Origin: Pedobacter sp.
GTDB taxonomy: Bacteria > Desulfobacterota > Desulfuromonadia > Desulfuromonadales > Syntrophotaleaceae
Direction: 5' to 3'
Assembly: GCA_050253415.1 (NCBI GenBank)
Contig: JBFWJC010000007.1
Span: 67,879 to 131,878 of the forward strand
DNA length: 64,000 nt
Positions 10,062 to 57,323 of the stretch are shown piece by piece. A program made the translations under genes and the position numbers. Each line of letters begins with the position of its first letter. The first letter of the stretch is position 1. Under the pieces are notes generated by a model. It saw only the letters and a program-made list of their open reading frames with translations. It did no database searches and had not been told where the DNA came from.

Positions 10062-10070
10062 AGTTACCCC

Positions 10071-10592: not shown

Positions 10593-10942
10593 AGCATCAT
10601 AACCTTCATCGTCAGAAAGTGCCAAAACTCATATTGGCACCAGGACTGAAATGATAAGAACATGACCTTTTCTACAGCCTGAATTGAAGGCTGTCAATCC
10701 CAATGCGGGTATGGAGCATAGGTAAAAGCCATATCTACCCGAGACCGCAACCCACTTGAGCATACACCGAGTCAAGGAAAATGGGACATCGTATTTTCCC
10801 CCTCACCTCTTTTTTTTTCAACTCTTTGCTGGTATAGTTGGCAGGCCATTTTCAATGGCGCTCATCTGATTTCTACCCACTTATATGTTGCCGCTGATCA
10901 GAGGCCTTACCCCCTGTATCAGCATGAAGGAGCCATTGACCA

Positions 10943-12334
10943 ATGCAATACATGAGCACTCGCGGCAAGACAAGCGGATTAACTTTCAAGGATGCTGTCA
11001 TGATGGGCCTGGCCGACGACGGCGGCCTATTGTTGCCCGAATCTATTCCGACCCTCTCCCGGGGCGATATCGCCGCACTTTCCAAAATGGCCTATCCGGA
11101 ACTGGCGTTTCGCATCATCTCCCTGTTTTCCGGGAATATCCCCGCAGGGGATTTAAAACACCTCATCGATAAATCCTACCAGACCTTTAATCATCCGGAA
11201 GTAACTCCGGTCGTGCATAAGGACGGAATCTATATCCTTGAGCTATTTCATGGCCCGACTTTGGCTTTTAAAGATGTCGCTTTGCAGTTTCTGGGCAACA
11301 TGTTCGAATATCTGCTTAAAGAAAGCGGCGCCCACATGAATATTCTTGGCGCAACCTCCGGCGACACCGGAAGTGCCGCCATTTACGGTGTACGCGGTAA
11401 GGAGAATATCAATATATTCATTCTTCACCCAGACCAGAGGGTTTCACCGATACAAAAACTGCAGATGACCACGGTGACGGATCCAAACGTCTTCAATCTG
11501 GCCATACGTGGAACGTTTGACGACGGGCAACGTATCGTCAAGGAGATTTTCGGAGATCTTGAGTATAAAGGAAAAATGTCCCTTGGCGCCGTTAATTCCA
11601 TCAACTGGGCCCGGGTCCTCGCACAAGTGGTCTATTATTTTTACGCATTTGGACGAGTCCAGCGTGAAACCAACTGCACCGAAGCCTATTTTTCGGTACC
11701 TACCGGTAATTTTGGGGATATTTTTGCCGGCTATGTTGCCAAACGCATGGGGTTGCCAATCCGTCGCTTGATTCTTGCCACCAACGAAAATGACATTCTT
11801 TCACGGTTTATTACCCATGGTGACTATTCAACAGCAAACGTTGTACCGACCCCATCTCCATCCATGGACATCCAATTGGCAAGCAACTTCGAACGGTACC
11901 TTTTCTACCTTTTCGATCAGGACGCCAGCAAGGTTAGCAAAACCATGGAGGAGCTTGCAGCTACAGGACAACTGAAGTTTGGCCCCGAAGATATGAACCG
12001 TGTCGCTAAAGACTTTCTTGCAGGCTCTGCAACCCGGCAGGAAACCCTCGACACGATCAGCGCTTTTCACAAAGCTACCGGCTATACCCTTGATCCGCAC
12101 ACGGCTGTCGGGGTTAAAGTTGGCAAGGAACTGACCGGCGGAGAATGCCCGCTTATTTGCCTGGCAACCGCCCATCCGGCAAAATTCGGTGAAGCGGTAC
12201 AACAGGCTATCGGTCAGGACCCCATCTTACCGCGCGAATTCCAGGGTATTGAAAACAAAGAACAACGATGCGAAATCATCGATGCCGATACCCAGGCAAT
12301 CAAAGACTACCTGGCAAAACACGCGCTGCTGTAG
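10943..12334 (+). CDS. thrC: Threonine synthase
   Basis: YMSTRG, ELFHGPTLAFKD, ATSGDTG, NSINWAR, VPTGNFG. Confidence 0.97.
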   Translation: MQYMSTRGKTSGLTFKDAVMMGLADDGGLLLPESIPTLSRGDIAALSKMAYPELAFRIISLFSGNIPAGDLKHLIDKSYQTFNHPEVTPVVHKDGIYILELFHGPTLAFKDVALQFLGNMFEYLLKESGAHMNILGATSGDTGSAAIYGVRGKENINIFILHPDQRVSPIQKLQMTTVTDPNVFNLAIRGTFDDGQRIVKEIFGDLEYKGKMSLGAVNSINWARVLAQVVYYFYAFGRVQRETNCTEAYFSVPTGNFGDIFAGYVAKRMGLPIRRLILATNENDILSRFITHGDYSTANVVPTPSPSMDIQLASNFERYLFYLFDQDASKVSKTMEELAATGQLKFGPEDMNRVAKDFLAGSATRQETLDTISAFHKATGYTLDPHTAVGVKVGKELTGGECPLICLATAHPAKFGEAVQQAIGQDPILPREFQGIENKEQRCEIIDADTQAIKDYLAKHALL

Positions 12335-12351
12335 TTTTGACCTCCATACAA

Positions 12352-12393
12352 AACAAAAGGCCCCCAGCGCTTGTCGTTGGGGGCCTTTTTGTT
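12352..12393 (+). terminator. thrC intrinsic terminator
   Basis: AAAAGGCCCCCAGCG-CTTGT-CGTTGGGGGCCTTTTT. Confidence 0.8.
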
Positions 12394-12450
12394 ATCGAAA
12401 TACGTGGAACAAGTGATTCGTGATTGGTGAATAGTTGGAAACCGAAAAAG

Positions 12451-12632
12451 CAGTCACCAAGCACCAGTCACCAAGCACCAGTCACCAGTCACCAGTCACC
12501 AGTCACCAGTCACCAGTCACCAGTCACCAGTCACCAGTCACCAGTCACCAGTCACCAGTCACCAGTCACCAGTCACCAGTCACCAGTCACCAGTCACCAG
12601 CCACCAGCCACCAGTCACCAGTCACCAGTCAC
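12451..12632. repeat. Heptamer tandem repeat (CAGTCAC) x26 with a few variant units
   Basis: 182 bp equals 26 units. Variants CAAGCAC and CAGCCAC. Preceded by GTGATTCGTGATTGGTGA. Confidence 0.95.
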
Positions 12633-12665
12633 AAAAAAAGCCCCCGGCATTGCCGGGGGCTTTTT
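12633..12665 (-). terminator. glnA (bidirectional) intrinsic terminator
   Basis: AAAAAAAGCCCCCGGC-ATT-GCCGGGGGCTTTTT. Confidence 0.85.
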
Positions 12666-12683
12666 AATGGATCACTTAAAAAC

Positions 12684-14093
12684 TTAGCAGTCGTAGTACA
12701 GAGCGAATTCGAGGGGAACCGGACGCATGCGAACGGGATCCACTTCGGCTTCGGTCTTGTACTCGATCCACTTTTCAATAACGTCTTCAGTAAAGACATC
12801 ACCTTTAAGCAGGAAGGCATGATCTTCTTTGAGAGCTTCAAGAGCCTCAATCAAGCTGCCGGCAACGCTGGGGATAGTTGCCAGTTCTTCGGGGGGAAGA
12901 CCGTAGATGTCTTTATCCAAAGGCTCGCCCGGATCAATCTTGTTTTCGATACCGTCAAGTCCAGCCATCAGGATAGCTGAGAAGCACAGGTAGCCGTTAG
13001 CCGAGGGATCAGGCGTACGGTATTCAACGCGCTTGGCTTTGGGGCTGTTACCCTGGGGGATACGCAGTGCAGCAGAACGGTTACGACCCGAATAAGCCAG
13101 GTTAACCGGCGCTTCGTAACCGGGCACCAGACGCTTGTAGGAGTTAGTGCTGGGGTTGGTGAAAGCGCACAGAGCTTTGGCATGCTTGATGATACCGCCG
13201 ATGAAGTACAGAGCGGTCTTGGACAAACCGGCATAGCCGTCGCCAGCAAAGGTGTTAACGCCGTCTTTCCAGATGGAAACGTGACAGTGCATCCCGCTTC
13301 CGTTATCACCGAAGAGAGGCTTCGGCATAAAGGTTACGGTTTTGCCATTGCGAACCGCAACGTTCTTGATAACGTATTTGAACCACTGCAGAGTATCGCC
13401 TGCGTTGAGAAGGGTATCAAATTTAAAGTCGATCTCACACTGGCCGCCGGTAGCAACTTCATGGTGTTGAGCTTCGATGTGAATGCCAACTTCCTGGCAA
13501 ACCTGAACCATCTCGTTACGCAGATCCACCAGGGAGTCGGTGGGAGCGCAAGGGAAGTAACCTTCCTTGTGACGGGGTTTGTAACCGAGGTTGGGGAACT
13601 CTTCACGGCCGGTGTTCCAGATACCTTCGCTGGAATCAACGCTGTAAAAAGACTCATTACAGGTGGAGCTGTAACGAACATCATCAAAGATGAAGAATTC
13701 AGGCTCAGGACCGTAGAAAGCGGTGTCGCCGATACCGGTGGACTTAAGGTAGGCTTCAGCCTTTTGAGCAATGAAGCGGGGGTCGCGGCTGTAACCTTCT
13801 TTGGTAATGGGATCATAAATGTTACAGATCAGGCTCAGGGTCGGAACCTTGATAAAAGGATCGAGTCTGGCGCTGTTGGGGTCAGGAATAATGGCCATGT
13901 CGCTGTTGTGAATGGGCTGCCAGCCACGAATGGAGGAACCGTCAAAGCCAAGACCTTCTTCGAAAGTATCTTCACTGAATTCACAAATAGGTACGGAAAC
14001 ATGCTGCCAGATACCAACGAAGTCGAGGAACTTGTAATCCACCATCTGGATATTCTTTTCCTTGACAAACTCCATTACCTCTTTAGGTGTCAT
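12684..14093 (-). CDS. glnA: Glutamine synthetase type I
   Basis: [47 protein letters not shown], and adenylylation-site region DKDIY. Confidence 0.98.
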
Positions 14094-14161
14094 TGCGATT
14101 ACTCCTTTTGACTAACCTCGGTTGAAATGATAGTAAACGTAAGATTCGGCAAATAGCCGGC

Positions 14162-14566
<405 letters not shown>

Positions 14567-14634
14567 CTAAACAATGCCGGTCACCAAAATAGATAACTGG
14601 TAGCGGTTTTCTACTTCCTTCGGCCGCATTAACA

Positions 14635-14651
14635 AGCAAATTAATTGCCAA
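14635..14651 (-). promoter_or_regulatory. Sigma54 (-24/-12) promoter of glnB-glnA
   Basis: Minus strand reads TTGGCAATTAATTTGCT, matching TGGCA-N6-TTGC. Confidence 0.85.
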
Positions 14652-14758
14652 CACCACGTAGAGAATACAATGTTTTTATAACTATCTATTTTTAAAAATA
14701 TTTTCCATGCAAAACCAACAACGATCATGCACCTTACTTTAGTTGACTATACAATGAC

Positions 14759-14807
14759 TGCTTATTTTATAAACACAAACGAGAAGAAAGTGTTTATATT
14801 TTAAGCA
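14759..14807. promoter_or_regulatory. Tandem enhancer sites for an NtrC-like activator
   Basis: Two 17-bp palindromes, TGCTTATTTTATAAACA (14759-14775) and TGTTTATATTTTAAGCA (14791-14807), 32 bp apart, 110-155 bp upstream of the sigma54 site. Confidence 0.65.
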
Positions 14808-14855
14808 CGGATGAAGTTCAACACTTCAGCTATTATTTATTCAAACACCAAAGAT

Positions 14856-15374
14856 TTAGCCCTGGGACCAGCGGCAGTACAACGCCCACTCTTCCTCGAA
14901 ATTAGGAGTAAAAAAACCCTGTCCCAGGCGCTCACCAATCTCATCTGCGGAAAAAAAACGTACAGCATCTATTTCACAGGGATCAAAACTAATTTCGCCA
15001 TCATAGCGAATCAAAAAGGTCGCAATGTTCTCGGATTCGAAGTCGTTACGAATCCGCGAGTGATACAGAAATTCAATGGGAACATTACTAATTCCCAACT
15101 CTTCCCGCATCTCCCTCAGAGCGGCCGCATGATATCCCTCCCCCGGGTCAAGGTGACCACCGACACTCGTATCCCAACGCCCCGGTTGAACATCCTTGGT
15201 CATGGAACGCTTTTGCAGCAAAATTTGATCATCCCGATTAACAACGAGAACATGGGCAACGCGATGAATCAGTTCGGGGTTACCATGGCACTCTCTGCGC
15301 AGAGCCGTACCAACAAACCGATCCTGATCGTCCACGATTTCAAACCACTCTTCGCCAGACATCCCTTTTGCCAT
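14856..15374 (-). CDS. NUDIX hydrolase (IPP isomerase/YfcD-like)
   Basis: HRVAHV, LLQKRS..KD..PGRWD.SVGGH..GE....AA.RE..EELG. Confidence 0.9.
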   Translation of the reverse strand: MAKGMSGEEWFEIVDDQDRFVGTALRRECHGNPELIHRVAHVLVVNRDDQILLQKRSMTKDVQPGRWDTSVGGHLDPGEGYHAAALREMREELGISNVPIEFLYHSRIRNDFESENIATFLIRYDGEISFDPCEIDAVRFFSADEIGERLGQGFFTPNFEEEWALYCRWSQG

Positions 15375-15898
15375 TATTTCCGGTCGAAAAAAGGACTTTT
15401 ACCCGTTATCGAAAGAGGCAGTCCAAATGCCAGAGCAGCATCCTCTCCCAACATTCCCAGTTCCAGGGCGGCTTTACCGGCCGTATACAGGATGCGATTA
15501 TCAATACGCAGATCAGCAGCGCGACTCACAGCGGAACCGAGGGCAATACCGAGATCCCCACTGTTGAAGGCGCACACGGCCCCGGCCTTTTGTAACTCAC
15601 CGCAATTACTAAAACCACAAAAACCACAATGGGGTAATCCGAGGGGCTTCTTGCTGGTGGCAAAAAGGATAATAAGTTGCGCCTGGCGAACATTTTCGGC
15701 ATCGCGGGCAAAAAACGCAACACCATCACGTTCAGCAATAAGATGCATGCGTTCGACCAGACTATCCTTTTCATCACCATCAACGATGGCAGTGGTCATC
15801 AAATCAAGACCGCGACCTTTTGGTGCTGTACGCGCAGCTGCACAGATCATACGCGCAAAATCAAGCAACCCGTTTTTCTCATCATTGATAAGAAGCAT
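15374..15898 (-). CDS. DUF2148 family ferredoxin-domain protein
   Basis: AARTAPKGRG, CGFCGF..C, DLGIALGSA, DNRI, GKSPFFDR. Confidence 0.8.
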   Translation of the reverse strand: MLLINDEKNGLLDFARMICAAARTAPKGRGLDLMTTAIVDGDEKDSLVERMHLIAERDGVAFFARDAENVRQAQLIILFATSKKPLGLPHCGFCGFSNCGELQKAGAVCAFNSGDLGIALGSAVSRAADLRIDNRILYTAGKAALELGMLGEDAALAFGLPLSITGKSPFFDRK

Positions 15899-23065: not shown

Positions 23066-23491
23066 CTATGAAGCTAACTTCACAATCCGAAGAACGTTTT
23101 TCTCTATCTCTTCGGACTTCATTTCACCTTCCATAATTTCATCATGCAACAATAGAATCAGTTCGGCCTTTTTTTCTGGCGGCCATGGTTTGCTCAAACG
23201 AGCAAACACCTTTTCAATCTCAACAATCACCTCCCACATTATTTTCTTATCTATAGGAAAGGTAGAAACATACTCCTCTTTGCAGCGCATCATCTCGCCA
23301 TCTTCCAGCAATACCCAATTTATGTTAAATCCTAGACGACCTAAACCTTCTAGGACATTCCCACCAGGTACACTCCCACCCTCCTCGTATATTTGCCAAG
23401 TGCGTGTAGCGATGCTTAAGGACTTTGCCATATTTTTTTGGCTTAGCCCCGTCTCTTCACGAACTTTTTTTAGTCGTTCGGCTAGTGTCAT
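23066..23491 (-). CDS. XRE-family HTH prophage repressor (c-like), no S24 domain
   Basis: LAERLKKVRE..GLSQK.MA..L......WQ.YE.G...P....L..L..LG.NINWVL. Divergent from ner/A. Confidence 0.85.
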   Translation of the reverse strand: MTLAERLKKVREETGLSQKNMAKSLSIATRTWQIYEEGGSVPGGNVLEGLGRLGFNINWVLLEDGEMMRCKEEYVSTFPIDKKIMWEVIVEIEKVFARLSKPWPPEKKAELILLLHDEIMEGEMKSEEIEKNVLRIVKLAS

Positions 23492-24349: not shown

Positions 24350-24374
24350 AGAGAATCCCCTGGAAGGATCAAAC

Positions 24375-24656
24375 ATGAACTGTGCAAAGAAACACACCCC
24401 TCAAACCGACTGGCACCCGGCGGACATCAAGGCCGCTCTGGCGAAAAAGGGCTTTACCTTTGCCCGGATCGCCCGGGAGCACGGTTATCGCTCCAACTCG
24501 CCGAATTCGGTGCTGTGGACCCGGTGGCGGCCGATGGAGCGGATCGTGGCCGACATCATCGGCGTGGCGCCGGAGGATATCTGGCCGAGCCGCTATGGGT
24601 CCGAGCCGCAACGCTTCATAACTCGAAAAAAGAGTATCAAATCTACATTGAATTAA
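24375..24656 (+). CDS. ner: Ner/Nlp-like transcriptional regulator
   Basis: DWHPADIKAAL.KKG....IA....W..ME..VA..IGV.PEDIWPSRY. Confidence 0.9.
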   Translation: MNCAKKHTPQTDWHPADIKAALAKKGFTFARIAREHGYRSNSPNSVLWTRWRPMERIVADIIGVAPEDIWPSRYGSEPQRFITRKKSIKSTLN

Positions 24657-24710
24657 CAATGACCAAAAGGAGGGGGTGCGGTTGACCTTGTTTCGTCTAC
24701 GGAGGAGATC

Positions 24711-25184
24711 ATGGCCAGACAGAATACGGACCCCAATCAACTGAGCTTGCTGGATGTTTTGCGAAAAGAGGAGGAGCGGATGCTGCTGGGTTTGCGAGAC
24801 GCGCCGGGGGCTTTGAACATGCGGTCGCTGGTGCGCAACGCGATGTACGAGGCGATCAAGGAGAGCCACCTTAGCCGCTGGGAGATCGCGGCCAAGATGA
24901 GCGAACTGACGGATCAGGAGATCAGCAAGTTTATGCTGGACGCCTGGACCAGCGAGAGCAAGGAGGGGCATCGCTTCCCCCTGGAGTACGCTGCGGCTTT
25001 TTGCCGGGCAACGGGCAACTCCAAAGTGCTTGAGATCGTGTGTCAGCCGGTGGGGATGTTTGCTCTGGGCGGGCCGGATGCGCTGCGCAGCCAGAAGCAA
25101 CAGCTTACCGAACAGATGTCTGAGATGCGGAAGAAGTCGGCGGAGATCGATCAGATGATCAAGGCATGGGAGAAGAAGAGATGA
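24711..25184 (+). CDS. Phage regulatory protein (CII/CP76-like HTH)
   Basis: SRWEIAAKMSELT...ISK.MLDAWTSESK..HRFP. RBS GGAGG. Confidence 0.6.
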   Translation: MARQNTDPNQLSLLDVLRKEEERMLLGLRDAPGALNMRSLVRNAMYEAIKESHLSRWEIAAKMSELTDQEISKFMLDAWTSESKEGHRFPLEYAAAFCRATGNSKVLEIVCQPVGMFALGGPDALRSQKQQLTEQMSEMRKKSAEIDQMIKAWEKKR

Positions 25185-25187
25185 GGT

Positions 25188-25218
25188 TGCGGGGGATATC
25201 CCCTTGTTATCCCCCGCA
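25188..25218. terminator. Hairpin between convergent genes
   Basis: TGCGGGGGATA-N9-TATCCCCCGCA. Confidence 0.55.
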
Positions 25219-25227
25219 GGAAGGGGG

Positions 25228-25368
25228 TCAGCGGCCTGTGGGTTTTTTATCCCTGGTCGTGATGCGACTGCCGTCTTCGCTGTTGGTCGCGATATCCAGC
25301 GTAGCCGGCGGAGTGGGCGGGGCCTGTGGTTTAGGGGCCTGGGCCTCGCCCTTGGTTTTATCAGCCAT
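25228..25368 (-). CDS. 46-aa Pro-rich peptide, not in the ORF track
   Basis: AGGAGGTG RBS, then MADKTKGEAQAPKPQAPPTPPATLDIATNSEDGSRITTRDKKPTGR. Confidence 0.55.
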   Translation of the reverse strand: MADKTKGEAQAPKPQAPPTPPATLDIATNSEDGSRITTRDKKPTGR

Positions 25369-25384
25369 TAGAAATCACCTCCTT

Positions 25385-25885
25385 TCAGGAGAGGATAAAC
25401 AGCGCCCCCGCTATCAGCAGGAGGACGAAGGATGTCATCAGATACATGGATATACCTCGCAATCTTTTTGCTCGCGAGCTTTGGACTGCTATTTGACGCT
25501 GAATAACGACCCGGGTCTGATCGACGAGGAATCGCATGGCCGTTTCATCGTCATAAGTGCCGTCGGCCAGCCCGTCAAGATAGGCGCAATAATCGGGAGC
25601 TTTGATATTGTCGGCATCCTTACCGCGCAAGCTGTCAAGACAGAAGCCAACGATGAGCAACGCCAGAGCCGCCGAAACCACGGCAAAGGCCTGCCAATGC
25701 ATCACCGGAAAGACCGGCGATTTTTGAAGCAACATCAGATCGAGGGTCAGGGCCAGGGAAGCCGACCACAGGTAAGTCCGGAACAACCCGTCCTGACGGG
25801 CGGGGAGCCGGTCGGTCAGCCAGACATAGAGATTTTCCATCTGTTTGAAGATCAGTTCGTAGGCTTTGGTCAAAGTGTCCTCCAC
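25385..25885 (-). CDS. Multi-TM membrane protein (moron)
   Basis: Three hydrophobic segments. Antisense to the early operon. Confidence 0.6.
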   Translation of the reverse strand: MEDTLTKAYELIFKQMENLYVWLTDRLPARQDGLFRTYLWSASLALTLDLMLLQKSPVFPVMHWQAFAVVSAALALLIVGFCLDSLRGKDADNIKAPDYCAYLDGLADGTYDDETAMRFLVDQTRVVIQRQIAVQSSRAKRLRGISMYLMTSFVLLLIAGALFILS

Positions 25886-25943
25886 AAGGTTGGTTAATGC
25901 TGAAAGCCTATCACAGACAAATGGTTATATGAAAACGATTTAA

Positions 25944-26007
25944 GCGAAACCGCGCCCCTTGGGGCCGGTCGTCCGAGGGTGGCACTTCGGGCCTGACGAG
26001 CAGCCAT
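25944..26007 (+). ncRNA. Type II hammerhead ribozyme 1 (predicted cleavage after C25970)
   Basis: GC-GAAA, stem III (CCG c GCCC CTTG GGGC CGG), TC, stem I (GTCCGAGG/GTGGCA/CTTCGGGC), CTGACGA-GC. Loop TGGC can pair with the 3' GCCA (pseudoknot). Confidence 0.85.
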
Positions 26008-26026
26008 GCAATACAAGGAGTGATTT

Positions 26027-28171
26027 ATGGACGCATATTTTAACGGTGAAGAATTAGCCGGGCTACCCGGCATGCCTAAGACCGCCAGGAGTGTCCATCG
26101 CAAGGCAGCCAGTGAAAGTTGGCAGAGTCAGGAAGTGGCTGCCAAGGGTGGGCGAACAGGTACCAGGCGGGAATATCACATCAACAGCCTGCCGCCTGAG
26201 ACCCGCAAGGCGTTGGCAAAGTCACACCCTGCTGCCATGCACGACCCCGCAGGTACCGAGACCGGCCAGAAGCTGGCCCTGAGCGCCAAAACCAAAAAAC
26301 AGGCACAGCGCAAGCAGGCCGAGGACGCCTTACAGTGCGCAGCGCATCTGCCCGAGCGCGAACGCCAACGCAATGCCGATCGCTCGGCCATATTGGCCGA
26401 CTGGAAGCAATACCGCCGGGTCTCCGGAGAATCGGTCAACCCTTCGCTTGCCTCGTATTCCAAATTGTATAACGCCGGGCAGCGCGAAGGTATGGAGACG
26501 ATCCGGCAGCGGATCCGCAAAGTTTCCATGCGCACCCTGTTGCGCTGGCGCAGCGACGTCAAAGAGCGCGGGCACCTGGGCGCACATTACGGCCAAAACA
26601 AGGGCGGCAACAAGATCGACAGCCAGCCGGAGTTGAGAGATTTTGTGGTGGCGATGCTGACGGCCTATCCGCACTGCAAGGCCAGCCAGGTGATCCAGTC
26701 TCTGGATGCTCGGTTTGCCGATCGCGATGACCTTGATCTGCCGAGTCAGGGACGGCTTGGCAAATGGATGAATGTCTGGAAGGAAAAAAACGCCCAGCTG
26801 TTCAGCGCCATGAGTAACCCTGACCAATGGAAGAACGGCTTCATGACGGCGTTTGGCAGCTCCTCGGAGAACGTCGCGGTATTGAATCAGCTTTGGGAAT
26901 TCGACGGCACCCCGGCGGACATCATGTTTACCGACGGCAGGCATTCGATCTGCGGCGTAATCGACGTGTACAGCCGCCGCCCCAAGATGCTGGTCACACC
27001 TACGGCACGAGCCACGGCGGTGGCCGCCCTGCTGCGCCGCGCGCTGCTCGACTGGGGCCTGCCTGCCGATCCCTGGCGACTGACCGCCAAAACCGACAAC
27101 GGCTCTGATTACAAGTGCCATCACATGGCGCGGGTGTTTGAGCTGCTGGATATCGACCAGGTTCTCTGCCCGCCCTTCTCCCCCTGGCACAAGCCGCACA
27201 TCGAGCGTTTTTTTCGCAGTTTCTCCCACGACCTTGTGGAGCTTTTGCCTGGATTTATCGGGCACAACGTCGCCGATCGCAAGGGTATCGAGGCACGCAA
27301 GGCTTTTTCGGAGCGACTGTTTAAAAAAGACCAAGTCATCGAGGTCAACATGCGCGCCGAGGAATTCCAAAAGTTTTGCGATGAGTGGGTGACCAACATT
27401 TACATGCACCGGCCTCACGATGGCCTTAACGGCAAGACGCCCTACCAGATGGTGAACGAATGGCGCGAACCGGTGGAGCGCATCCGCAACGAACGGGCAC
27501 TGGATCTGTTGTTGTCGGAAGCCCCCGGCAAGGGGCTGCGCACGGTCAGCAAAAAGGGCATCCGCCTGGATCACGGTTTGTTTATCGCGCCGGAGCTGTG
27601 GGCGGTGGTCGGACAAGAGGTGCGGGTGCTGGAAGTGGCCGACGATCTCGGGAGGATCATGGTGTACGGCGGCGAGCAACTCAACGAATTTGTGTGCGTG
27701 GCGGAATGTCCGGAGCGTACCGGCATCGACCGCGCCGAGGTAGCCGCCAAGGCCAAGGAGATCCAGAAAAAAGCCGTACAGGAAGCCAAGGCCGAACTCA
27801 AGGCCAAGGCCAAAAAGCTTGGTGTGGACGATATCGTCACCGAGATCCGCGCAGCGGCAGCGACCCAGGCCGGCAAGCTCACCGCCCTTCCGCGCCCCTC
27901 GCGCGATTACACCAGCGCAGGATTGGACGCTGCAGCCGAGGCCGCATGCAGCCTGGACAACATTGCGACACGCCAGAAGATCACGGCCGATATCTCGACA
28001 CCGGAGGCATCTTACGCCCGGTGGAAAAAACTGGAAGCACGGCACGCCGCAGGCGAGACGCTGTATGCGGAAGACGCGGCGTTTTTCAAGGGGTTTGCCA
28101 TGAGTGCGGACTGGAGAGCCATGCAGAAGATGGAAGAGGATTTCGGGCCGTTTTACCTGGCCCATTCATGA
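26027..28171 (+). CDS. MuA-like DDE transposase
   Basis: N-terminal Mu-type HTH (ELAGLPGMP...REYHINSLP). Catalytic motifs WEFDGTPAD, TDNGSDY, KPHIERFF. Confidence 0.95.
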   Translation: MDAYFNGEELAGLPGMPKTARSVHRKAASESWQSQEVAAKGGRTGTRREYHINSLPPETRKALAKSHPAAMHDPAGTETGQKLALSAKTKKQAQRKQAEDALQCAAHLPERERQRNADRSAILADWKQYRRVSGESVNPSLASYSKLYNAGQREGMETIRQRIRKVSMRTLLRWRSDVKERGHLGAHYGQNKGGNKIDSQPELRDFVVAMLTAYPHCKASQVIQSLDARFADRDDLDLPSQGRLGKWMNVWKEKNAQLFSAMSNPDQWKNGFMTAFGSSSENVAVLNQLWEFDGTPADIMFTDGRHSICGVIDVYSRRPKMLVTPTARATAVAALLRRALLDWGLPADPWRLTAKTDNGSDYKCHHMARVFELLDIDQVLCPPFSPWHKPHIERFFRSFSHDLVELLPGFIGHNVADRKGIEARKAFSERLFKKDQVIEVNMRAEEFQKFCDEWVTNIYMHRPHDGLNGKTPYQMVNEWREPVERIRNERALDLLLSEAPGKGLRTVSKKGIRLDHGLFIAPELWAVVGQEVRVLEVADDLGRIMVYGGEQLNEFVCVAECPERTGIDRAEVAAKAKEIQKKAVQEAKAELKAKAKKLGVDDIVTEIRAAAATQAGKLTALPRPSRDYTSAGLDAAAEAACSLDNIATRQKITADISTPEASYARWKKLEARHAAGETLYAEDAAFFKGFAMSADWRAMQKMEEDFGPFYLAHS

Positions 28172-28237
28172 TGAAAGCCGCGTTGCAGCGCGGCTTCACC
28201 GCCCGATAAATCGGGTATTACAAAGGAGGCATAAAGC

Positions 28238-28975
28238 ATGACACAGATTAACTCAGGATGCAAGACCACCGCGCCGCTGACCAACGTCGGCCTGTTTATG
28301 CGGCTGGTCGAACGCGCGATGAACCGCGCACCGCGCTTGCCGGGGATGGTGTGTTTCCACGGCCCGAGCGGCTGGGGGAAATCCTCGGCGGCGGTGTACG
28401 CCTACCAGAAGCTCGACACTCACTACATCGAGTGCCGCAGCACCATGACCAAAAAGACCTTTTTGGCCGAGCTTCTCAAAGAGATGGGGATCCTTCCGGA
28501 GCGCACCATCGGCGCCATGTATGCGCAAGCGGTCGCCGCCCTTGAAGGCAGCCAGCGGCTGCTGATCATCGACGAAATGGACTACCTGGTGCAGAAGTCG
28601 GCGGTGGATATCGTGCGCGACCTGCACGACGAAACCGGTGTGGTCATCGCCCTGATCGGCGAGGAGCAACTGCCTGCCAAGCTCAAGCGCTGGGAGCGTT
28701 TTCACGGGCGCATACTGGCCTGGCAGGGCGCCCAACCGGTCACCACAGCCGATGTGGAGCATCTGGCCAGGCTGTACTGCCCGACGGTAGCAGTAGACGC
28801 CGATCTGCTTGACAAGCTGCACACCCTGAGTAAAGGGTCGGCGCGGCGTATCTGCGTCAATCTGGCGATGATCTTTGAAGAGGCCCGCCGCCAGGGGATG
28901 GAAGCTATGGGCCTGAACGAATGGGGTAATCGCCCGCTGTATACCGGCGAAGCCCCTGCCGGCAGGAGGTTTTAA
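28238..28975 (+). CDS. MuB-like AAA+ transposition ATPase
   Basis: Walker A GPSGWGKS, Walker B LLIIDEMD, VRDLHD. Confidence 0.9.
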   Translation: MTQINSGCKTTAPLTNVGLFMRLVERAMNRAPRLPGMVCFHGPSGWGKSSAAVYAYQKLDTHYIECRSTMTKKTFLAELLKEMGILPERTIGAMYAQAVAALEGSQRLLIIDEMDYLVQKSAVDIVRDLHDETGVVIALIGEEQLPAKLKRWERFHGRILAWQGAQPVTTADVEHLARLYCPTVAVDADLLDKLHTLSKGSARRICVNLAMIFEEARRQGMEAMGLNEWGNRPLYTGEAPAGRRF

Positions 28976-28976
28976 C

Positions 28977-29552
28977 GTGCCTCTCAAGCCTGTCGACAAA
29001 CGCAATGCCATGCAAACCCGCGAGGCCCTGTGGGCGGCCATGCGCGAGGCTGGAGAATTCACCGTGCGCCAGGTGCGCAAGATGACCCGCTGCAGCATGG
29101 ATCAAACCCGCGATTACGTCACCGCCCTGCACAATGCCGGGCACCTGCTCAAGGTACCTTTCGAAGATGGCCGTGCCGCCATCTATATCCTGGTCAAAGA
29201 GAAGGCCAGCGCCCTCGCCCCGAAGGTGCGTAAGGACGGCAGCCTCATCACCCAGGGGCGCGGCCGCGAGCAGATGTGGCGCGCGATGCGGGTGCTCGGG
29301 GTCTTCACAGTGCAGGAGCTGGTGGTGCATGCGACAACCGAAGAACACGCGGTCGCCGACAACGAGGCGGTCACCTACTGCCGGTTTTTGATGAACGCAG
29401 GCTATCTGACCCGCAAAGGCAGTGTTTACCAGTTTGTTCGCAGCCGGTACAGCGGCCCGCGACCGCCGATGATCCAACGGGTCAAGCAGGTGTATGACCC
29501 CAACCTTTGCAAAGTGGTGTGGAGCCAGGGAGGAACCCATGACGCAGACTGA
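28977..29552 (+). CDS. Conserved Mu-like early protein (tandem winged-HTH-like)
   Basis: Two repeats of W.AMR....FTV..L......Y...L..AG.L, and C-terminal GPRPP.IQR...VYDPN. Confidence 0.7.
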   Translation: MPLKPVDKRNAMQTREALWAAMREAGEFTVRQVRKMTRCSMDQTRDYVTALHNAGHLLKVPFEDGRAAIYILVKEKASALAPKVRKDGSLITQGRGREQMWRAMRVLGVFTVQELVVHATTEEHAVADNEAVTYCRFLMNAGYLTRKGSVYQFVRSRYSGPRPPMIQRVKQVYDPNLCKVVWSQGGTHDAD

Positions 29553-29859
29553 CCAGCAGACGTTATTTTTAGCCATGATCGAAACCCACGGTGCCGCCAG
29601 CGTGGCCCGTGCCATCGGTTACAGCCAGAGCGCCGTCAGCCAGGCCAAAAACGACAAGTACCAGGGCGACCTGACCAACCTGCTCACCCGAGTTGAAGAG
29701 GTGTATGGCAGCACCCGGCACTTTTGCCCGGTGTTCGGCGAGGAGATCAGCCTGGGGCGCTGCGCCGAAGAACGCCGCAAGCTGCCACGCTATACCAACC
29801 CGGTGGCACGGCTTTTGACCCAGACCTGCCCCACCTGCGAGAGAGGCGGTGGCCAATGA
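29539..29859 (+). CDS. HTH protein with C-terminal Cys motif
   Basis: VARAIGYSQSAVSQ...KY.GD, CPVFGE, CPTC. Confidence 0.7.
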   Translation: MTQTDQQTLFLAMIETHGAASVARAIGYSQSAVSQAKNDKYQGDLTNLLTRVEEVYGSTRHFCPVFGEEISLGRCAEERRKLPRYTNPVARLLTQTCPTCERGGGQ

Positions 29860-30227
29860 GTACGATTTGTTGTCGCAAATGCGGTGCCGGTCGCGGCTCG
29901 CTGGAACCGATCATCGAGCATCTGGAGAATGGCGCCTTACTGCAAACCGTGCGCTGCATCCTGTGCGGCGAGCGGCGCTCGCGGGAAGCCAGCCTCTACA
30001 AGGATCTGTCGGAGGCAAGGAGGCGGATCGCCTACGGCAAAACCTGCGGGGTCGTCGGCTGCAACGTCAAATTGTCCCATAGCAACACGACCGGCATGTG
30101 CAAAACGCATGGCAAGGTGTTGCACAACTGGATGAACAGCAAACGCCAAAGGCCTACGCCCTATATCCAGACCGCCGATGGATGGATCCCTAACCCGGAA
30201 CGCGAGGTGAATCATGCGCATGTCTGA
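29856..30227 (+). CDS. Cys-rich hypothetical protein
   Basis: CRKCG, CILCG, CGVVGC, CKTH. ATGA overlap with the upstream gene. Confidence 0.6.
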   Translation: MSTICCRKCGAGRGSLEPIIEHLENGALLQTVRCILCGERRSREASLYKDLSEARRRIAYGKTCGVVGCNVKLSHSNTTGMCKTHGKVLHNWMNSKRQRPTPYIQTADGWIPNPEREVNHAHV

Positions 30228-30408
30228 CGAACGTCTCAATTATCTGGCCAGCCGGTTTGTAGAGCTGGATCTGGCCAAGCTGCTGCGAATCACGTTTGAG
30301 CAGTACCTGGCGGACCCCGAAGGTTGGGACATGCACGCCACCTACCTGGTGGCCGGTGGCGGGTTGAATGTCACGTTTGGGGTGCAGCGCCCCGTCGCGC
30401 TGCAGTGA
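30214..30408 (+). CDS. Small hypothetical phage protein
   Basis: Translationally coupled. ITFEQYL motif. Confidence 0.5.
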   Translation: MRMSDERLNYLASRFVELDLAKLLRITFEQYLADPEGWDMHATYLVAGGGLNVTFGVQRPVALQ

Positions 30409-30418
30409 GGAGATAAAC

Positions 30419-30673
30419 ATGTGCGATTGCAGAAAAACAATTGAAAAAAAGTTGCTAGACAAATTTCGTCAAGATGCACCCGAGGCCAAAGATCACACAT
30501 CTAAACTCACGGGATATGCCTTTATATTCGGTGAAAGTGTAATGGAAAAGGGCGTTATGCCGATAGAGCAAACGGCAAAGTTCCCCTTGAAAAAGGGTGG
30601 AATGAAAGAGAGAAAAATTAAAATCAACATGATGTTTACTTACTGCCCCTTCTGTGGCGAGAAGTACGCCTAA
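30419..30673 (+). CDS. Small Cys-motif phage protein
   Basis: MCDC...YCPFCG. RBS GAGGAG. Confidence 0.6.
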   Translation: MCDCRKTIEKKLLDKFRQDAPEAKDHTSKLTGYAFIFGESVMEKGVMPIEQTAKFPLKKGGMKERKIKINMMFTYCPFCGEKYA

Positions 30674-30701
30674 ACCATTATTTAACAGGAGATTAACGAA
30701 C

Positions 30702-31322
30702 ATGGAAATCGCCGTAAAAGAGATCTCAGCAGAAGGATACATGGAAGACTCCAAGGGGCGGCTGGTGCCGCTGTGCCGAGTCAGCCAAATAGATAAGGAA
30801 CGTGACGCCCTGGTCCGTGAAATCGTTATTCAGGCCCAGAGTGTCGCAGCTCAAGTGGCGGCCTTTAAAACCAAGGTGCTTGGCGATATCGAGGCGTTTG
30901 TGGATCTCAGCGCCGAACGTTTTGACGTCAAGCTCGGCGGCGCCAAAGGCAACGTATCGTTGCTCAGTTATGACGGCTGCTACAAGGTCCAGAGGGCAAT
31001 TGACGATTATCTGGTGTTTGATGAGCGACTGCAGATCGCCAAGGCCTTGATCGACGACTGCATCAATACCTGGTCGGAAGGCTCCCGCGAGGAGATCCGC
31101 ATGCTGATAAACGACGCCTTCCAGGTCGATCAGCAGGGCAAGGTCAACGTCAAGCGCATCCTTGGTCTGCGTCGTTTACCCATCACCGACAAGCGTTGGC
31201 TCAAGGCCATGGACGCTATCGGCGAGAGTATCCAGGTGACGGGCTCCAAAACCTATGTGCGGGTCTACGAGCGCATGGCAGACGGAAGCTTTAAGCAGAT
31301 CAGTCTCGACGTATCCAAATAA
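30702..31322 (+). CDS. DUF3164 family protein (Gam-position gene of Mu-like phages)
   Basis: GYM.DSKGRLVP, GG.KGNV.L.SYDG, FDERLQIAK.LID.C, AFQVD..G, SKTYVR.YER. Confidence 0.8.
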   Translation: MEIAVKEISAEGYMEDSKGRLVPLCRVSQIDKERDALVREIVIQAQSVAAQVAAFKTKVLGDIEAFVDLSAERFDVKLGGAKGNVSLLSYDGCYKVQRAIDDYLVFDERLQIAKALIDDCINTWSEGSREEIRMLINDAFQVDQQGKVNVKRILGLRRLPITDKRWLKAMDAIGESIQVTGSKTYVRVYERMADGSFKQISLDVSK

Positions 31323-31334
31323 CGGAGGTGGCGT

Positions 31335-31526
31335 ATGGCAGAGAATAATTTCCAAGTGCCACCGATGACCAAGAATGGCAATGCCCAAACCGAAAGCGGC
31401 AACCAGGGCCATGTGCTGATCGGCAAAGGGTGCCCGGCGCCGCGCCAGAGCCCCATGGGCGTGACCATCGGTAGAGCAACGTTTGTCTCTTTGGATCTGG
31501 TACCGCAGGAGATGGTGCAGGGTTAA
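31335..31526 (+). CDS. Small hypothetical protein
   Basis: RBS GGAGGT, in the operon. Confidence 0.45.
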   Translation: MAENNFQVPPMTKNGNAQTESGNQGHVLIGKGCPAPRQSPMGVTIGRATFVSLDLVPQEMVQG

Positions 31527-31552
31527 CCCCTCAAACGGAAAGGTAAACAGCC

Positions 31553-31735
31553 ATGAGAATTGTCGTTACCGCGTTTTGCAACCGCCCGGGTTGCCCCGTT
31601 ACAGAGTTTGTCGACCTGCGCGATAGCCTGACGTACCAGAGCATGGTCCATGAAGAACCCAAGCCGATCACGCACCTGCAGTGCCCCTGCTGCAAAGGAA
31701 TGGGCACGATCGTCAAGACGCAGGAGGTGGCCTGA
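31553..31735 (+). CDS. Small Cys-motif protein
   Basis: C....CP and CPCC motifs. Confidence 0.5.
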   Translation: MRIVVTAFCNRPGCPVTEFVDLRDSLTYQSMVHEEPKPITHLQCPCCKGMGTIVKTQEVA

Positions 31736-31737
31736 TC

Positions 31738-31905
31738 ATGAAACTTTTATCCCATTTTCACGGCATTGAATCGGTAGAGGTTTTGAAAACAGTGCTGGGT
31801 GACTACCCCGACAAGATGAAAATCTGCGACGTAAGTGGCGAACCGCTGGATCTGCGGGTTTTTGAGGACAAGCAGACCGGCGAACGAACCCTTGTTGTGG
31901 ATTGA
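31738..31905 (+). CDS. Small hypothetical protein
   Basis: RBS GGAGGT. Its stop codon abuts hammerhead 2. Confidence 0.5.
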   Translation: MKLLSHFHGIESVEVLKTVLGDYPDKMKICDVSGEPLDLRVFEDKQTGERTLVVD

Positions 31906-31988
31906 TTGCGAAACCGGACCATTTTGTTGACGTCAACAAAGTGGTCCGGTCGTCCAGGGGTGGCGCCCTGGGCCTGATGAGCAGCCAT
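31906..31988 (+). ncRNA. Type II hammerhead ribozyme 2 (predicted cleavage after C31951)
   Basis: TTGC-GAAA, long stem III (CCGGACCATTTTGTTGACGTCAACAAAGTGGTCCGG), TC, stem I (GTCCAGGG/GTGGCG/CCCTGGGC), CTGATGA-GCAG. TGGC/GCCA pseudoknot. Confidence 0.88.
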
Positions 31989-32019
31989 AGCACAGCGGGG
32001 CGATGCGCGCCTCTATTTG

Positions 32020-32057
32020 GCCGGCGGGATCATCCTCCTGACCCGCCGGCATTTTTT
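32020..32057 (+). terminator. Intrinsic terminator-like hairpin after hammerhead 2
   Basis: GCCGGCGGG...CCCGCCGGC-ATTTTTT. Confidence 0.6.
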
Positions 32058-32080: not shown

Positions 32081-32281
32081 ATGGCTGACAAGCACTGCGG
32101 CAATTGCAAATACACCGGATGGAAAGGCCTCACACGGTGGTGCCGCCATCCGTATCATGTGGCCCCTTTGGAAAACCCCTCCGGACACTGCAATGAATGG
32201 CTGGATGAAGAGACCAAGCACATGCCTGGCGAAGTACCAACCTGGGAGTATCCGGTTCGTTTAGCGGAGAAAAACGCGTGA
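32081..32281 (+). CDS. Small Cys-rich hypothetical protein
   Basis: HCGNCKY...WCRHP...HCNEW. Confidence 0.5.
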   Translation: MADKHCGNCKYTGWKGLTRWCRHPYHVAPLENPSGHCNEWLDEETKHMPGEVPTWEYPVRLAEKNA

Positions 32282-32574
32282 ACAAATCGAACAAAAAGCG
32301 GCAAAAGTGTACGCACATGACACCCGCCAAGCTCAAGCAGATCCGGCGCGATGTCGGTTTTGACATGCGCAGCATGGCCCGCAGTCTGGGGATGCCATAT
32401 CGCACCTATCAGGACTACGAGTACGGCAAGCGCGGTGTCTCCAAAGCGGCCGCCGATGCCGTCCGTGATTTGTGGCGGCGCGATCGTGCGTTTATGAAAA
32501 AGTTTCGTCGGGAGATGTTGGCCGATATCGATCGGGCGTTTCCCGGCGGCATACCCTCGGAGGTGAGCGAGTGA
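32278..32574 (+). CDS. XRE-family HTH protein
   Basis: LKQIRR..G.....MA..LG...RTYQDYEYGKR. Confidence 0.75.
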   Translation: MNKSNKKRQKCTHMTPAKLKQIRRDVGFDMRSMARSLGMPYRTYQDYEYGKRGVSKAAADAVRDLWRRDRAFMKKFRREMLADIDRAFPGGIPSEVSE

Positions 32575-32981
32575 CTAAGGATGATTGGGCGAAGGTTGAG
32601 AAGGCGCTGAGCGGGACGTACGGCTACGCGATAATCCAGGCGGACGGGCGGAGGGTCACCTTTCAGCGGTGTATGGTGGGGGAAAACAGGTTAGGGATCC
32701 GAACCTATATTGACGGCACCATGGACGGCGCATGGATGATGCCGAAGAACGAATGCCCCGAACGCGTATATCTGCGGCCGGACAGCCGATATATCCATAG
32801 TCCTAAACAGCGGGCAAAGTTGAAGAAGCTCACCAAGCGGGTGCTCAAGGAGATGGGGGATTATTGGAACCCTGACGCAAAATACCTAATTTACAACCCT
32901 TCATGGCCCAACGCCACAGCGATCCGCAGGCACTACCAGAAGACGTTCGAGAGCATCGAACTGATCGAGGTGGTTGGATAG
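32571..32981 (+). CDS. Hypothetical phage protein
   Basis: GTGA overlap with the upstream gene. Protein-like composition. Confidence 0.6.
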   Translation: MTKDDWAKVEKALSGTYGYAIIQADGRRVTFQRCMVGENRLGIRTYIDGTMDGAWMMPKNECPERVYLRPDSRYIHSPKQRAKLKKLTKRVLKEMGDYWNPDAKYLIYNPSWPNATAIRRHYQKTFESIELIEVVG

Positions 32982-33034
32982 GCAAGAACCTTGTCTCACG
33001 CGAAGCCGCAAAGGCGCGAAGAAAGGCATGAATC

Positions 33035-33493
33035 ATGGCTAAAACATACCCAGACCACCGCCGTGCTGAGCTGGCGAAGATCCACATCGCAAAAAAAGAC
33101 CTCGGCATGACCGATGATGATTATACCACCATGCTGATGGCGATCACCGACAAGACCTCCGCTGGCGATATCACCGCCCGGCAGCGCCAGGAAGTGCTTG
33201 AGCACCTGGTCAGTTTGGGATTCAAAAACGACCGCAAGCGCGGTCGGCCTGCCAACATGGAGCGCAAGCCCAGCCAGGCAGAGGAACAGGTAAGCCGCGC
33301 CAAGCAGCTGGAGAAGATCGAGGCGCTGCTGACCGTCGGAGAAAAGCCCTGGGGTTACGCTGACGCTCTGGCTGCACGGATCTGCAAGGTCGATCGGGTG
33401 GCCTGGGTGGCTACCGTCGATCTGTATAAGATCATCACCGCGCTGCGCAAGCAGGCGAAGCGTGAGGGGTGGGATTTGAGTGGGGAGGAGTAA
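33035..33493 (+). CDS. gemA: GemA / Mu gp16-like protein (DUF1018)
   Basis: LAKIHIAKKDLG..DD.Y..ML...T.K.SA..., KIEALL. Confidence 0.85.
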   Translation: MAKTYPDHRRAELAKIHIAKKDLGMTDDDYTTMLMAITDKTSAGDITARQRQEVLEHLVSLGFKNDRKRGRPANMERKPSQAEEQVSRAKQLEKIEALLTVGEKPWGYADALAARICKVDRVAWVATVDLYKIITALRKQAKREGWDLSGEE

Positions 33494-35701: not shown

Positions 35702-35777
35702 ACTCCAAGGGTTGGCGTAAAATTTAATGAAGTTCGATATCCTGCTTATCTCAGGAGGATACCAAAAGGAGGCCGTT

Positions 35778-36146
35778 ATGGCAGAACGTTTCGGGCAAAT
35801 TTTGAGGAAGGCTCGGAAACAGACAAGGAAAACGTTGCGGGAACTGTCTGATGCTTCGGGCCTGGCAATCAGCTACATCTCAGACATTGAGCACGGAAGA
35901 AAAAATCCACCTCGAAGTGAGGCAATTCGCAAAATGCAGGATGTTCTCAATATATCTGGGAATATTCTTATTGACGCAGCAAATCGTGAATTGAAAGTAA
36001 GTAAAGAAATTGATGTAAACATGAAAAACCTCATCAACAAGCGACCAGCGTTGAGTGTTCTGAGTTTGCTGCGGGTAACTGCTGACATGGATGAGGACGA
36101 GTTTAGCCTGCTTGTCAATAGCCTTGAAAAGCGAAAGGAGCTCTAA
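35778..36146 (+). CDS. XRE-family HTH regulator
   Basis: RBS AGGAGG. FGQILRKARK....TLRELS...G...SYISDIEHGRKNPP. Confidence 0.88.
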   Translation: MAERFGQILRKARKQTRKTLRELSDASGLAISYISDIEHGRKNPPRSEAIRKMQDVLNISGNILIDAANRELKVSKEIDVNMKNLINKRPALSVLSLLRVTADMDEDEFSLLVNSLEKRKEL

Positions 36147-36150
36147 ATTT

Positions 36151-36744
36151 GTGAGTAAAGTGAATTTGGTTTTTGAAGGCATGAAAGGGAGGGATATAGA
36201 TCGTCTTGCTGAGGCTGTAATTCAAAAATTTCAGCCGGAGGTATTGACGGGGAAATGCCCTTTTGATATCGAGCAGTTTGCTGAGTTTGACCTAGAGGAT
36301 GGGTATGGGTTTACCTACCACGTGTCAGATGAGTTACCTCACGGGATTTTCGGCGTGACAGATTGCACCGAGAGGAAAGTCTGGATCCATGAAGATTTGA
36401 CAGCACCAGAGAACATCAGGCTTCTTCGCTCAACTGCTGCACACGAAACCGGGCATTGTATTATTCATGCTCCACAAATCGACCGAGCCGGGGCACTTCA
36501 GGTTTTTCGGCAGAAAAAAGAGAGTGGATCCCCGAAACTGTATCGTAAAGACGATGTACCAATTTACAGAAATCCGGAGTGGCAAGCTCATCGGTTTGCT
36601 GGGGCGTTATTGATGCCAGCAAGTATTGTTAATCAGTTAGTACGTAATGGCGCTGGTTTATATGATCTCGTAGAAAAATTTGATGTTCACCCAGCATTTG
36701 TTAGGAGTCGCCTACGCGCACTGAAAATTTTGATAAAAAATTAA
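36151..36744 (+). CDS. ImmA/IrrE family zinc metallopeptidase
   Basis: RSTAAHETGHCIIH (HExxH) and EWQAHRFAGALLMP. AAGGAG RBS before GTG 36151. Confidence 0.9.
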   Translation: MSKVNLVFEGMKGRDIDRLAEAVIQKFQPEVLTGKCPFDIEQFAEFDLEDGYGFTYHVSDELPHGIFGVTDCTERKVWIHEDLTAPENIRLLRSTAAHETGHCIIHAPQIDRAGALQVFRQKKESGSPKLYRKDDVPIYRNPEWQAHRFAGALLMPASIVNQLVRNGAGLYDLVEKFDVHPAFVRSRLRALKILIKN

Positions 36745-57320: not shown

Positions 57321-57323
57321 CGA

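Follow-up and report, generated by a model that had tools for sequence, protein, structure and literature searches.

Why does a Mu-like transposable prophage carry a self-cleaving ribozyme on either side of its transposition genes? The question is raised by a stretch of 64,000 nucleotides from Pedobacter sp. (GTDB lineage Bacteria; Desulfobacterota; Desulfuromonadia; Desulfuromonadales; Syntrophotaleaceae; GenBank assembly GCA_050253415.1, contig JBFWJC010000007.1, positions 67,879 to 131,878 of the forward strand), here called the window, in which two type II hammerhead ribozymes, HH1 and HH2, bracket the genes for the transposase MuA, the AAA+ protein MuB and a series of small early proteins. 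We consider it probable that the two ribozymes serve as protein-free intercistronic cutting sites on the long early transcript of the prophage. Their identity, placement, strand and conservation are matters of direct observation.

Two type II hammerhead ribozymes around the transposition genes

An Infernal scan of the whole window against all Rfam families at their gathering thresholds (37 bits for RF02276) returned exactly two Hammerhead_II (RF02276) matches, both on the plus strand and both covering the full-length model. The ribozymes and the genes between them are arranged as follows.

25942..26009, plus strand: HH1, hammerhead ribozyme type II (RF02276, 52.7 bits, E 5.2e-08)
26027..28171, plus strand: MuA-type DDE transposase (Pfam HTH_Tnp_Mu_1, rve and Mu-transpos_C; phrog_310, 2.3e-106), with the Shine-Dalgarno sequence AAGGAG at 26015-26020
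28238..28975, plus strand: MuB-type AAA+ transposition protein (Pfam AAA_22 and TniB; phrog_296, 6.8e-62)
28977..31905, plus strand: about nine small early genes, including a phrog_2030 regulator (28977-29552), a DUF3164 protein (30654-31322) and, as the last open reading frame (ORF), 31681-31905 (ORF list, Pfam, PHROG)
31906..31990, plus strand: HH2, hammerhead ribozyme type II (RF02276, 56.9 bits, E 4.3e-09)

A preliminary description of the locus had recognized two type II hammerheads with a full core, covarying stems and a pseudoknot, and had named this very scan as a check; both matches lie above the cut-off, and the covariation of 79 homologues (below) bears out the rest of the call. A laxer Rfam scan (E<=1) of positions 21000-62500 revealed no further ribozyme, its sole addition being one tRNA. 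HH1 and HH2 are also the only type II hammerheads that the same covariance model finds in the source genome (4.10 Mb), and none of 14 control genomes contains an RF02276 match. A descriptor search independent of Rfam recovered both copies on the plus strand and none on the minus strand.

Both copies contain the complete catalytic core, consisting of GAAA, the GUC cleavage site and CUGANGA (CUGACGA in HH1, in which the free position N7 is a C, and CUGAUGA in HH2). Stem II consists of two base pairs (GC/GC) and is open, while stems I and III are closed by loops, and the resulting type II topology is agreed upon by the Rfam alignment, the minimum-energy folds and the descriptor search. In each ribozyme a UGGC in loop I faces a GCCA in the 3' tail, the contact of the expected pseudoknot, and stems I and III are reproduced in the minimum-energy folds. 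With a stem III of 17 bp, HH2 folds much more stably than shuffled sequences do (z-score -5.9). Comparison of the two copies reveals two compensatory pair differences in stem I (G-C/A-U and A-U/G-C) and a stem III that is wholly different in sequence with its pairing kept. Every testable defining feature of the family is present, and on sequence grounds HH1 and HH2 are confirmed as genuine members of RF02276, a family in which site-specific self-cleavage has been demonstrated for other type II members (PMC3088659, PMC8782182). The tip of stem III in HH2 (31921-31936) is a perfect 16-nt DNA palindrome, TTGTTGACGTCAACAA; the related prophage L015 (labels of this form denote the loci compared here) has another long palindrome at the same position, and hammerheads that precede a terminator hairpin tend toward a longer stem III.

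Cleavage is predicted after C25970 in HH1 and after C31951 in HH2, a spacing of 5981 nt (31951-25971+1). The preliminary description counted correctly in this respect: the segment of 5,981 nt contains A, B and about nine small genes, and its termini, a 5'-OH and a 2',3'-cyclic phosphate, are a property of the family. Its placement of the ribozymes likewise agrees with ours. Between the end of HH1 and the MuA ATG (26027) lie 17 nt, and the first base of HH2 is the base that follows the stop codon of the ORF at 31681-31905, the last small gene.

Conservation of the ribozymes among Mu-like phages

To sample relatives blind to the presence of a hammerhead, we collected 80 viral contigs by MuB similarity alone (a 12-sequence MuB query; 45-90% identity, some near-duplicates) and searched them with a covariance model built on 79 hammerheads. 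This sample contains 40 hammerheads in 31 of the 80 loci, and all 40 lie on the MuB strand. Each of the 31 hammerhead-bearing loci has one hammerhead downstream of MuB, phrog_2030 or DUF3164, which we refer to as the HH2 slot, and the hammerhead in this slot precedes GemA in 26 of the 26 loci in which GemA was detected. A descriptor search that omitted the tail motif found hammerheads on the plus strand in 25 of the 80 loci and none on the minus strand.

A site of the HH1 type, ahead of the transposase, is present in only four of the 80 blind loci (L143, L144, L145, L166), or in three of 65 distinct evaluable loci under a stricter test; the remaining 27 of the 31 hammerhead-bearing loci have the HH2-slot ribozyme without a transposase-proximal partner. 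Likewise, among five genomes that encode a relative of MuA, L014 (64% identity) and L015 (57%) have an equivalent of HH2 only, adjoining a stop codon and followed by a terminator with CCUCC in its loop, and none before MuA. The bracket layout does occur in scattered lineages (L143, L144, L166, L070, L074, L089 and L427; in L403 and L419 one small ORF intervenes), and on the sequences compared it is a minority form. Paired placement across Mu-like prophages, which the preliminary description had suggested surveying, is not what the group displays, and given the rarity of the upstream site a mechanism that depends on the pair cannot be the conserved function.

The association also holds in the opposite direction. 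A search for the core pattern yielded 123 stretches in IMG/VR, of which 80 loci were analysed; relatives of the Mu proteins of the window are encoded in 71 of these, and 55 have early proteins upstream and GemA downstream, with GemA homology beginning 11-1658 nt after the ribozyme. In named bacterial genomes, 62 of the 79 loci with the hammerhead pattern are Mu-like, with hosts that include Desulfovibrio, Pseudomonas, Aeromonas, Undibacterium, roseobacters, Magnetococcales and others. A different arrangement is found in the IMG/VR contig L029, which has more than 25 type II hammerhead matches in about 7 kb (~9000-15600, minus strand), roughly one per border between small genes, and in which no Mu proteins were detected; L020, L052, L067, L085 and L093 resemble it, and 10 descriptor matches lie in L368, a Streptomyces locus.

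Across the 79 homologous hammerheads, all eight pairs of stem I covary with changes on both sides, and 98.2% of the cells are paired. The covariation score is 0.470, compared to 0.147 for shuffled alignments (none of 500 shuffles reaches the observed value) and at most 0.128 for slid controls. The pseudoknot cells pair in 98.4% of cases, the tail being fixed by the search pattern and the loop side free. For stem III, covariation was evaluated over the three outer pairs, as the alignment is poor deeper in. The covariation of stem I, together with the conserved catalytic core, reveals selection on a folded, active RNA rather than on the identity of the DNA.

The setting of the ribozymes is similarly uniform. 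In a set of 39 hammerheads (the two copies of the window, those of L014 and L015, and 35 of the 40 blind-sample matches, five near-duplicate rows having been dropped), 34 begin between -3 and +6 nt from the stop codon of the preceding ORF, and 26 have a Shine-Dalgarno sequence and an ATG within 35 nt downstream. The hammerhead unit thereby presents itself as a compact cassette of stop codon, ribozyme and ribosome site that is selected as folded RNA.

The arrangement belongs to a described class, and its novelty was overstated in the preliminary description. The type II hammerheads described by Perreault et al. 2011 (PMC3088659) share with those of the window the core, the topology, the pseudoknot between loop I and the 3' tail and the intergenic setting in prophages, and like them flank genes or short gene blocks; the bracket of the window spans about 6 kb and the transposase/MuB early block, whereas the constructs tested in that paper measure about 2 kb and enclose other genes, ardA among them. 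Similarly, Desulfovibrio vulgaris has three hammerheads of the same family near phage-like genes (loc 1-3, identified by cyPhyRNA-seq), for which cleavage was demonstrated, although two of the three flank only about 300 nt (PMC8782182). A further counterpart is the Pseudomonas phage vB_Pae_LESphi4 (Casadabanvirus, GenBank OQ594957.1), in which an annotated type II hammerhead (7989-8059) occupies the same slot as HH2, adjoining a stop codon after A, B, Kil and Gam-like genes and before genes for a small DNA-binding protein, GemA and Mor. Unlike the window, LESphi4 has no hammerhead ahead of transposase A and no terminator hairpin, the next gene following after 17 nt; look-alikes of its hammerhead are found in PaMx73, JBD69 and others. 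In the literature searched we found no paper that links hammerheads by name with Mu-like or transposable phages, D3112, Casadabanvirus, LESphi4 or JBD; the figures and PDF supplements of Perreault et al. may include a Mu-like example. What is new here is the measured conservation of the HH2 slot, the rarity of the bracket, a corrected map of the operon and a composite of hammerhead and terminator.

The early operon and the borders marked by HH1 and HH2

The window holds what appears to be a complete Mu-like prophage, with the gene order of such phages (Pfam, PHROG): repressor, ner-like, cII-like, MuA, MuB, DUF3164 and GemA, followed by lysis (endolysin), terminase, portal and protease genes. 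All of the elements by which a Mu-like early operon is recognized are present, namely a MuA-type DDE transposase with an adjacent MuB AAA+ protein, GemA downstream, and a repressor and ner upstream. For the ends of the prophage (attL/attR), no convincing terminal inverted repeat was found between 25100-26030 and 56000-63000. While the hammerhead bracket of the preliminary description stands, its map overlooked the ner-like and cII-like genes, a 763-bp insertion and a terminator after HH2. The features outside the bracket are as follows.

23066..23491, minus strand: c-like gene of an XRE-type repressor, transcribed divergently from the early genes (PHROG repressor/regulator families, best phrog_8, 1.2e-09)
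24375..24656, plus strand: Ner-like small repressor gene (phrog_769 'transcriptional repressor', 9.2e-26)
24711..25184, plus strand: cII-like regulator gene (phrog_2345, 3.9e-34)
25178..25940, no strand assigned: 763-bp insertion that separates the cII-like stop codon from HH1, as judged against the nearest relatives (blastn against L143)
31997..32013, plus strand: small GC hairpin between HH2 and the terminator, in the fold of 31952-32056 (comparable hairpin in L143 and L153)
32020..32057, plus strand: intrinsic-terminator-like hairpin with a 9-bp GC stem (hairpin 32020-32050), a 13-nt loop AUCAUCCUCCUGA and a run of six U
32081..33493, plus strand: block after HH2, with a Cys-containing ORF (32081-32281), HTH_3 (32278-32574), a phrog_5671 ORF (32472-32981) and GemA (33035-33493)

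Homologues of the repressor at 23066-23491 sit leftmost in related Mu-like loci. The cII-like gene, which is 49% identical to the gene at 3545-4015 of L014 that precedes MuA there, is the last gene ahead of the transposase in the relatives. The closest of these, L143 (with a MuA 83% identical to that of the window) and L144, proceed from the cII-like stop to HH1 to MuA without a gap, the TAA of L143 adjoining its HH1 homologue; these homologues lie at 1371-1439 in L143 and at 812-882 in L144/L145. According to blastn, positions 24354-25177 of the window correspond to 542-1365 of L143, and the match resumes at 25941 of the window and 1370 of L143. The intervening insertion encodes a membrane-like protein of 166 aa on the minus strand (25385-25885) that matches no Pfam or PHROG family. 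In L006 the minus-frame ORF is 72% identical, as opposed to 54% for the plus frame, and there the 166-aa homologue lies upstream of MuA without a hammerhead. Two 243-aa ORFs, at 25166-25897 (plus strand) and 24369-25100 (minus strand), were considered as genes and rejected, as homology favours the 166-aa minus-strand ORF and the ner-like and cII-like ORFs. Since the ner-like and cII-like genes lie upstream of HH1, it is not an element of the 5' leader of the early transcript; rather, HH1 is a separator between these regulatory genes and the transposition genes.

At the other border, the terminator hairpin begins 29 nt after the end of HH2, and together the HH2 cut and the terminator bound an RNA of about 105 nt (31952 to ~32057). 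The hairpin itself matches no Rfam family in the E<=1 scan. In 13 distinct phages (the window, L143, L148, L153, L146, L150, L149, L014, L015, L166, L018, L056 and L091), the hammerhead is followed within 1-37 nt by an 8-13-bp hairpin whose loop always contains CCUCC. The stems of these hairpins vary among the 13 phages with full compensation, around an unpaired CCUCC. A T-run follows the hairpin in 12 of the 13; in L091, GCCGGGGAAC directly follows the stem and a T-run occurs only beyond a further, outer helix.

Several observations concern the neighbouring genes. The ORF at 32081-32281 and its equivalents in L143, L144, L153, L056 and L019 encode a protein of 56-76 aa with paired cysteines near the N terminus, which is often the first gene past the HH2 slot and for which no Pfam or PHROG family was found. 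Between the early and lysis regions, at 35727-36744, an HTH repressor-like ORF overlaps one that resembles a metalloprotease; the two form an ImmA/IrrE-type pair, judging from the PHROG names, and have a lower third-position GC than the phage genes around them. The related Mu-like prophage L015 has a C4 antisense RNA at 13149-13354 (55.2 bits, cut-off 45), as well as matches that fall short of threshold for the a1/b1 target motif (41.4 bits, cut-off 46.7) and for isrK (48 bits, cut-off 50), a set known as the P1/P7-type antirepressor control module.

Probable processing of the early transcript and alternative roles

The most plausible role for HH1 and HH2 is to divide the early transcript into segments. 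Cleavage at HH1 would part the regulatory message of the ner-like and cII-like genes from that of transposase gene A, and cleavage at HH2 would part the A/B early block from the terminator and the gemA block. Upstream of each cut, the stem III hairpin and a 2',3'-cyclic phosphate would form the 3' terminus of the RNA, and the RNA downstream would begin with a 5'-OH and the stem I hairpin, followed within a few nucleotides by a Shine-Dalgarno sequence. Entry of RNase E that depends on a 5'-monophosphate is evaded by a 5'-OH end, and 3' exonucleases and poly(A) polymerase, which require a 3'-OH, are hindered by a cyclic phosphate behind a hairpin. The segments might therefore decay and be translated independently, each with a lifetime of its own and an insulated ribosome site. 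We infer this cleavage in the source phage, along with its effect on stability and translation. Perreault et al. 2011 proposed that prophage hammerheads cut long phage transcripts into mRNAs of operon or gene length, and report that tandem prophage hammerheads cleave co-transcriptionally in ~2-kb polycistronic constructs and in E. coli as well (PMC3088659). The three hammerheads of D. vulgaris cleave both in vivo and in vitro (PMC8782182), and in Mu-like phages of Pseudomonas the pE operon is described as one induced unit spanning ner, A, B, gemA and mor (PMC9936078).

Several points weigh against intercistronic processing. The stability effects are drawn from general enzymology, and the fold of HH1 is of ordinary stability compared to shuffled sequences (z = 0.06). 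Readthrough from pE to HH1 is in question in the window, where the insertion with its opposite-strand gene and a plus-strand hairpin with a T-run (25187-25248) precede the ribozyme; no sigma-70-like promoter was found on the plus strand in 25000-26030. No hammerhead is present in 49 of the 80 related Mu-like loci, and 11 such loci (141.6 kb) that were scanned produced no match to any other Rfam family, indicating that the function of the hammerhead is dispensable. Finally, the matching sequencing runs listed are six wastewater metagenomes (5-14% of words) and include no RNA run; the short contigs from four of them belong to related phages, probably derive from DNA and show no ends or joints at 25970/31951, a result that favours neither side.

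In addition to processing, HH2 and the terminator might act as one unit that frees the ~105-nt RNA as a regulator, with a 5'-OH end made by the ribozyme, independently of RNase E, a 3' end made by the terminator and a CCUCCU loop that would pair with ribosome-binding sites of the GGAGG type; this RNA would be stable and would come off the transposition mRNA at its 3' end once the early phase closes. Small RNAs with a C-rich, anti-Shine-Dalgarno loop are known (cuckoo/alpha-r14, RsaE/RoxS), and have a CCUCC hairpin loop beside a terminator and promoters of their own. The composite behind HH2 resembles them in the CCUCC loop by a terminator and would differ in its ribozyme-made 5' end, a likeness that we draw without assigning it to that class. 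The recurrence of the composite in 13 distinct phages with fully compensated stems is consistent with such a function, as is the position of a hammerhead just 5' of a terminator, which is of no obvious benefit to the mRNA. Every hammerhead of the blind sample that has a real terminator hairpin also carries the CCUCC motif, and strong composites were counted in 8 of the 31 loci with a hammerhead and in 0 of the 49 without one (L191 and L192 are weak, 6-bp cases), a contrast that overstates the association because the kin are not independent. In L146, the terminator (8696-8740) has a loop, CAACCCUCCUGG, that complements perfectly, over 12 nt, the ribosome-binding region of a gemA homologue lying 600 nt further downstream (site 9311-9330; -27.7 kcal/mol). 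In the other 10 loci tested, however, pairing between the loop and the gemA start region reaches only -3 to -16 kcal/mol, the 11 loci have no shared target, and matches to the CCUCC loop are not enriched in the window (3 at <=2 mismatches, 1.4 expected). The composite is also limited to a clade, its strict pattern matching only six IMG/VR contigs. A metagenome scan for CTGATGAGCAGCC...TTTTTT, an unspecific pattern, gave 77 distinct matches, most of them not hammerheads, of which 17 have any hairpin and none has CCTCC. CCUCC loops occur as well in opposite-strand terminators of some of these phages, and the motif may accordingly be a lineage habit of terminators in this group. Minus-strand terminator-like hairpins with a CCCUCC loop lie at ~9438-9478 in L014 and ~9085-9123 in L149 (14-bp stems), and at ~10484-10518 in L153 (13-bp stem), about 900 nt downstream of the hammerhead. 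We regard the release of a small RNA as unlikely on balance, a lead and not a finding.

Far less credible are two further roles, in one of which the double cut would free the 5,981-nt A/B RNA, whose ends would then be joined by RtcB, or by reverse ligation of the hammerhead, into an exonuclease-resistant circle. The 5'-OH and 2',3'-cyclic phosphate ends, a property of the family, suit RtcB, and the host genome encodes this ligase (PF01139, 596.6 bits); because the GC/GC stem II is common to the 5' half of HH2 and the 3' half of HH1, a chimeric hammerhead at the junction is formally possible, and the bracket recurs in several lineages (L143, L144, L166, L070 and L427; L403 and L419 with one ORF between). 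Nevertheless, the halves of a type II hammerhead are joined by the two base pairs of stem II, and nothing unites ends that lie 6 kb apart. Hammerhead-bounded circular RNAs such as viroid-like RNAs and retrozymes are smaller than about 1-2 kb and mostly non-coding, have hammerheads of type I or III, and have been observed as circles. The window resembles them in that two hammerheads bound a unit whose predicted ends would suit a ligase, yet the upstream partner, rather than being constant, is present in only 4 of 31 hammerhead-bearing blind loci and is lacking in the other 27, as it is in L014 and L015. Circular or spliced products were sought by Perreault et al. 2011 and, in the text of that paper, none are reported as detected (PMC3088659). 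We give circularization very little credence; what survives of the preliminary proposal is protein-free processing, without a circle and without a mechanism that needs both sites.

Scarcely more probable is a neutral role, in which hammerheads are retained as linkers at the borders where gene blocks are swapped, or as passengers of selfish cassettes, and cleavage is of no consequence. The 763-bp insertion lies exactly at the junction of stop codon and HH1, the gene content from the hammerhead to gemA differs among phages, some contigs have a hammerhead at nearly every gene border (more than 25 in ~7 kb of L029, 10 in L368), and 49 of the 80 relatives do without one. Against this, a mere marker would not be expected to display so strict a strand bias, with 40 of 40 hammerheads on the coding strand and no minus-strand descriptor match in 957 kb, nor eight covarying pairs in stem I around a conserved catalytic core, and the exact stretches that are shared (7-14 nt) fall below what homologous recombination needs. 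Intercistronic processing remains our preferred explanation for both ribozymes.

De la Pena et al. 2017 (PMC6155905) still regard the role of the hammerheads of bacteria and phages as open. Taken for the window alone, the result is routine annotation of two familiar ribozymes in a familiar setting, and the question of their role is narrowed rather than answered. About four in ten of the Mu-like phages in this clade retain a hammerhead at an invariant border of the early operon, which narrows where that role is to be sought, and the phages that do so include the genetically tractable Casadabanvirus of Pseudomonas. The combination of hammerhead and CCUCC-loop terminator offers, in addition, a concrete and testable lead toward small RNAs that may be made by a ribozyme.

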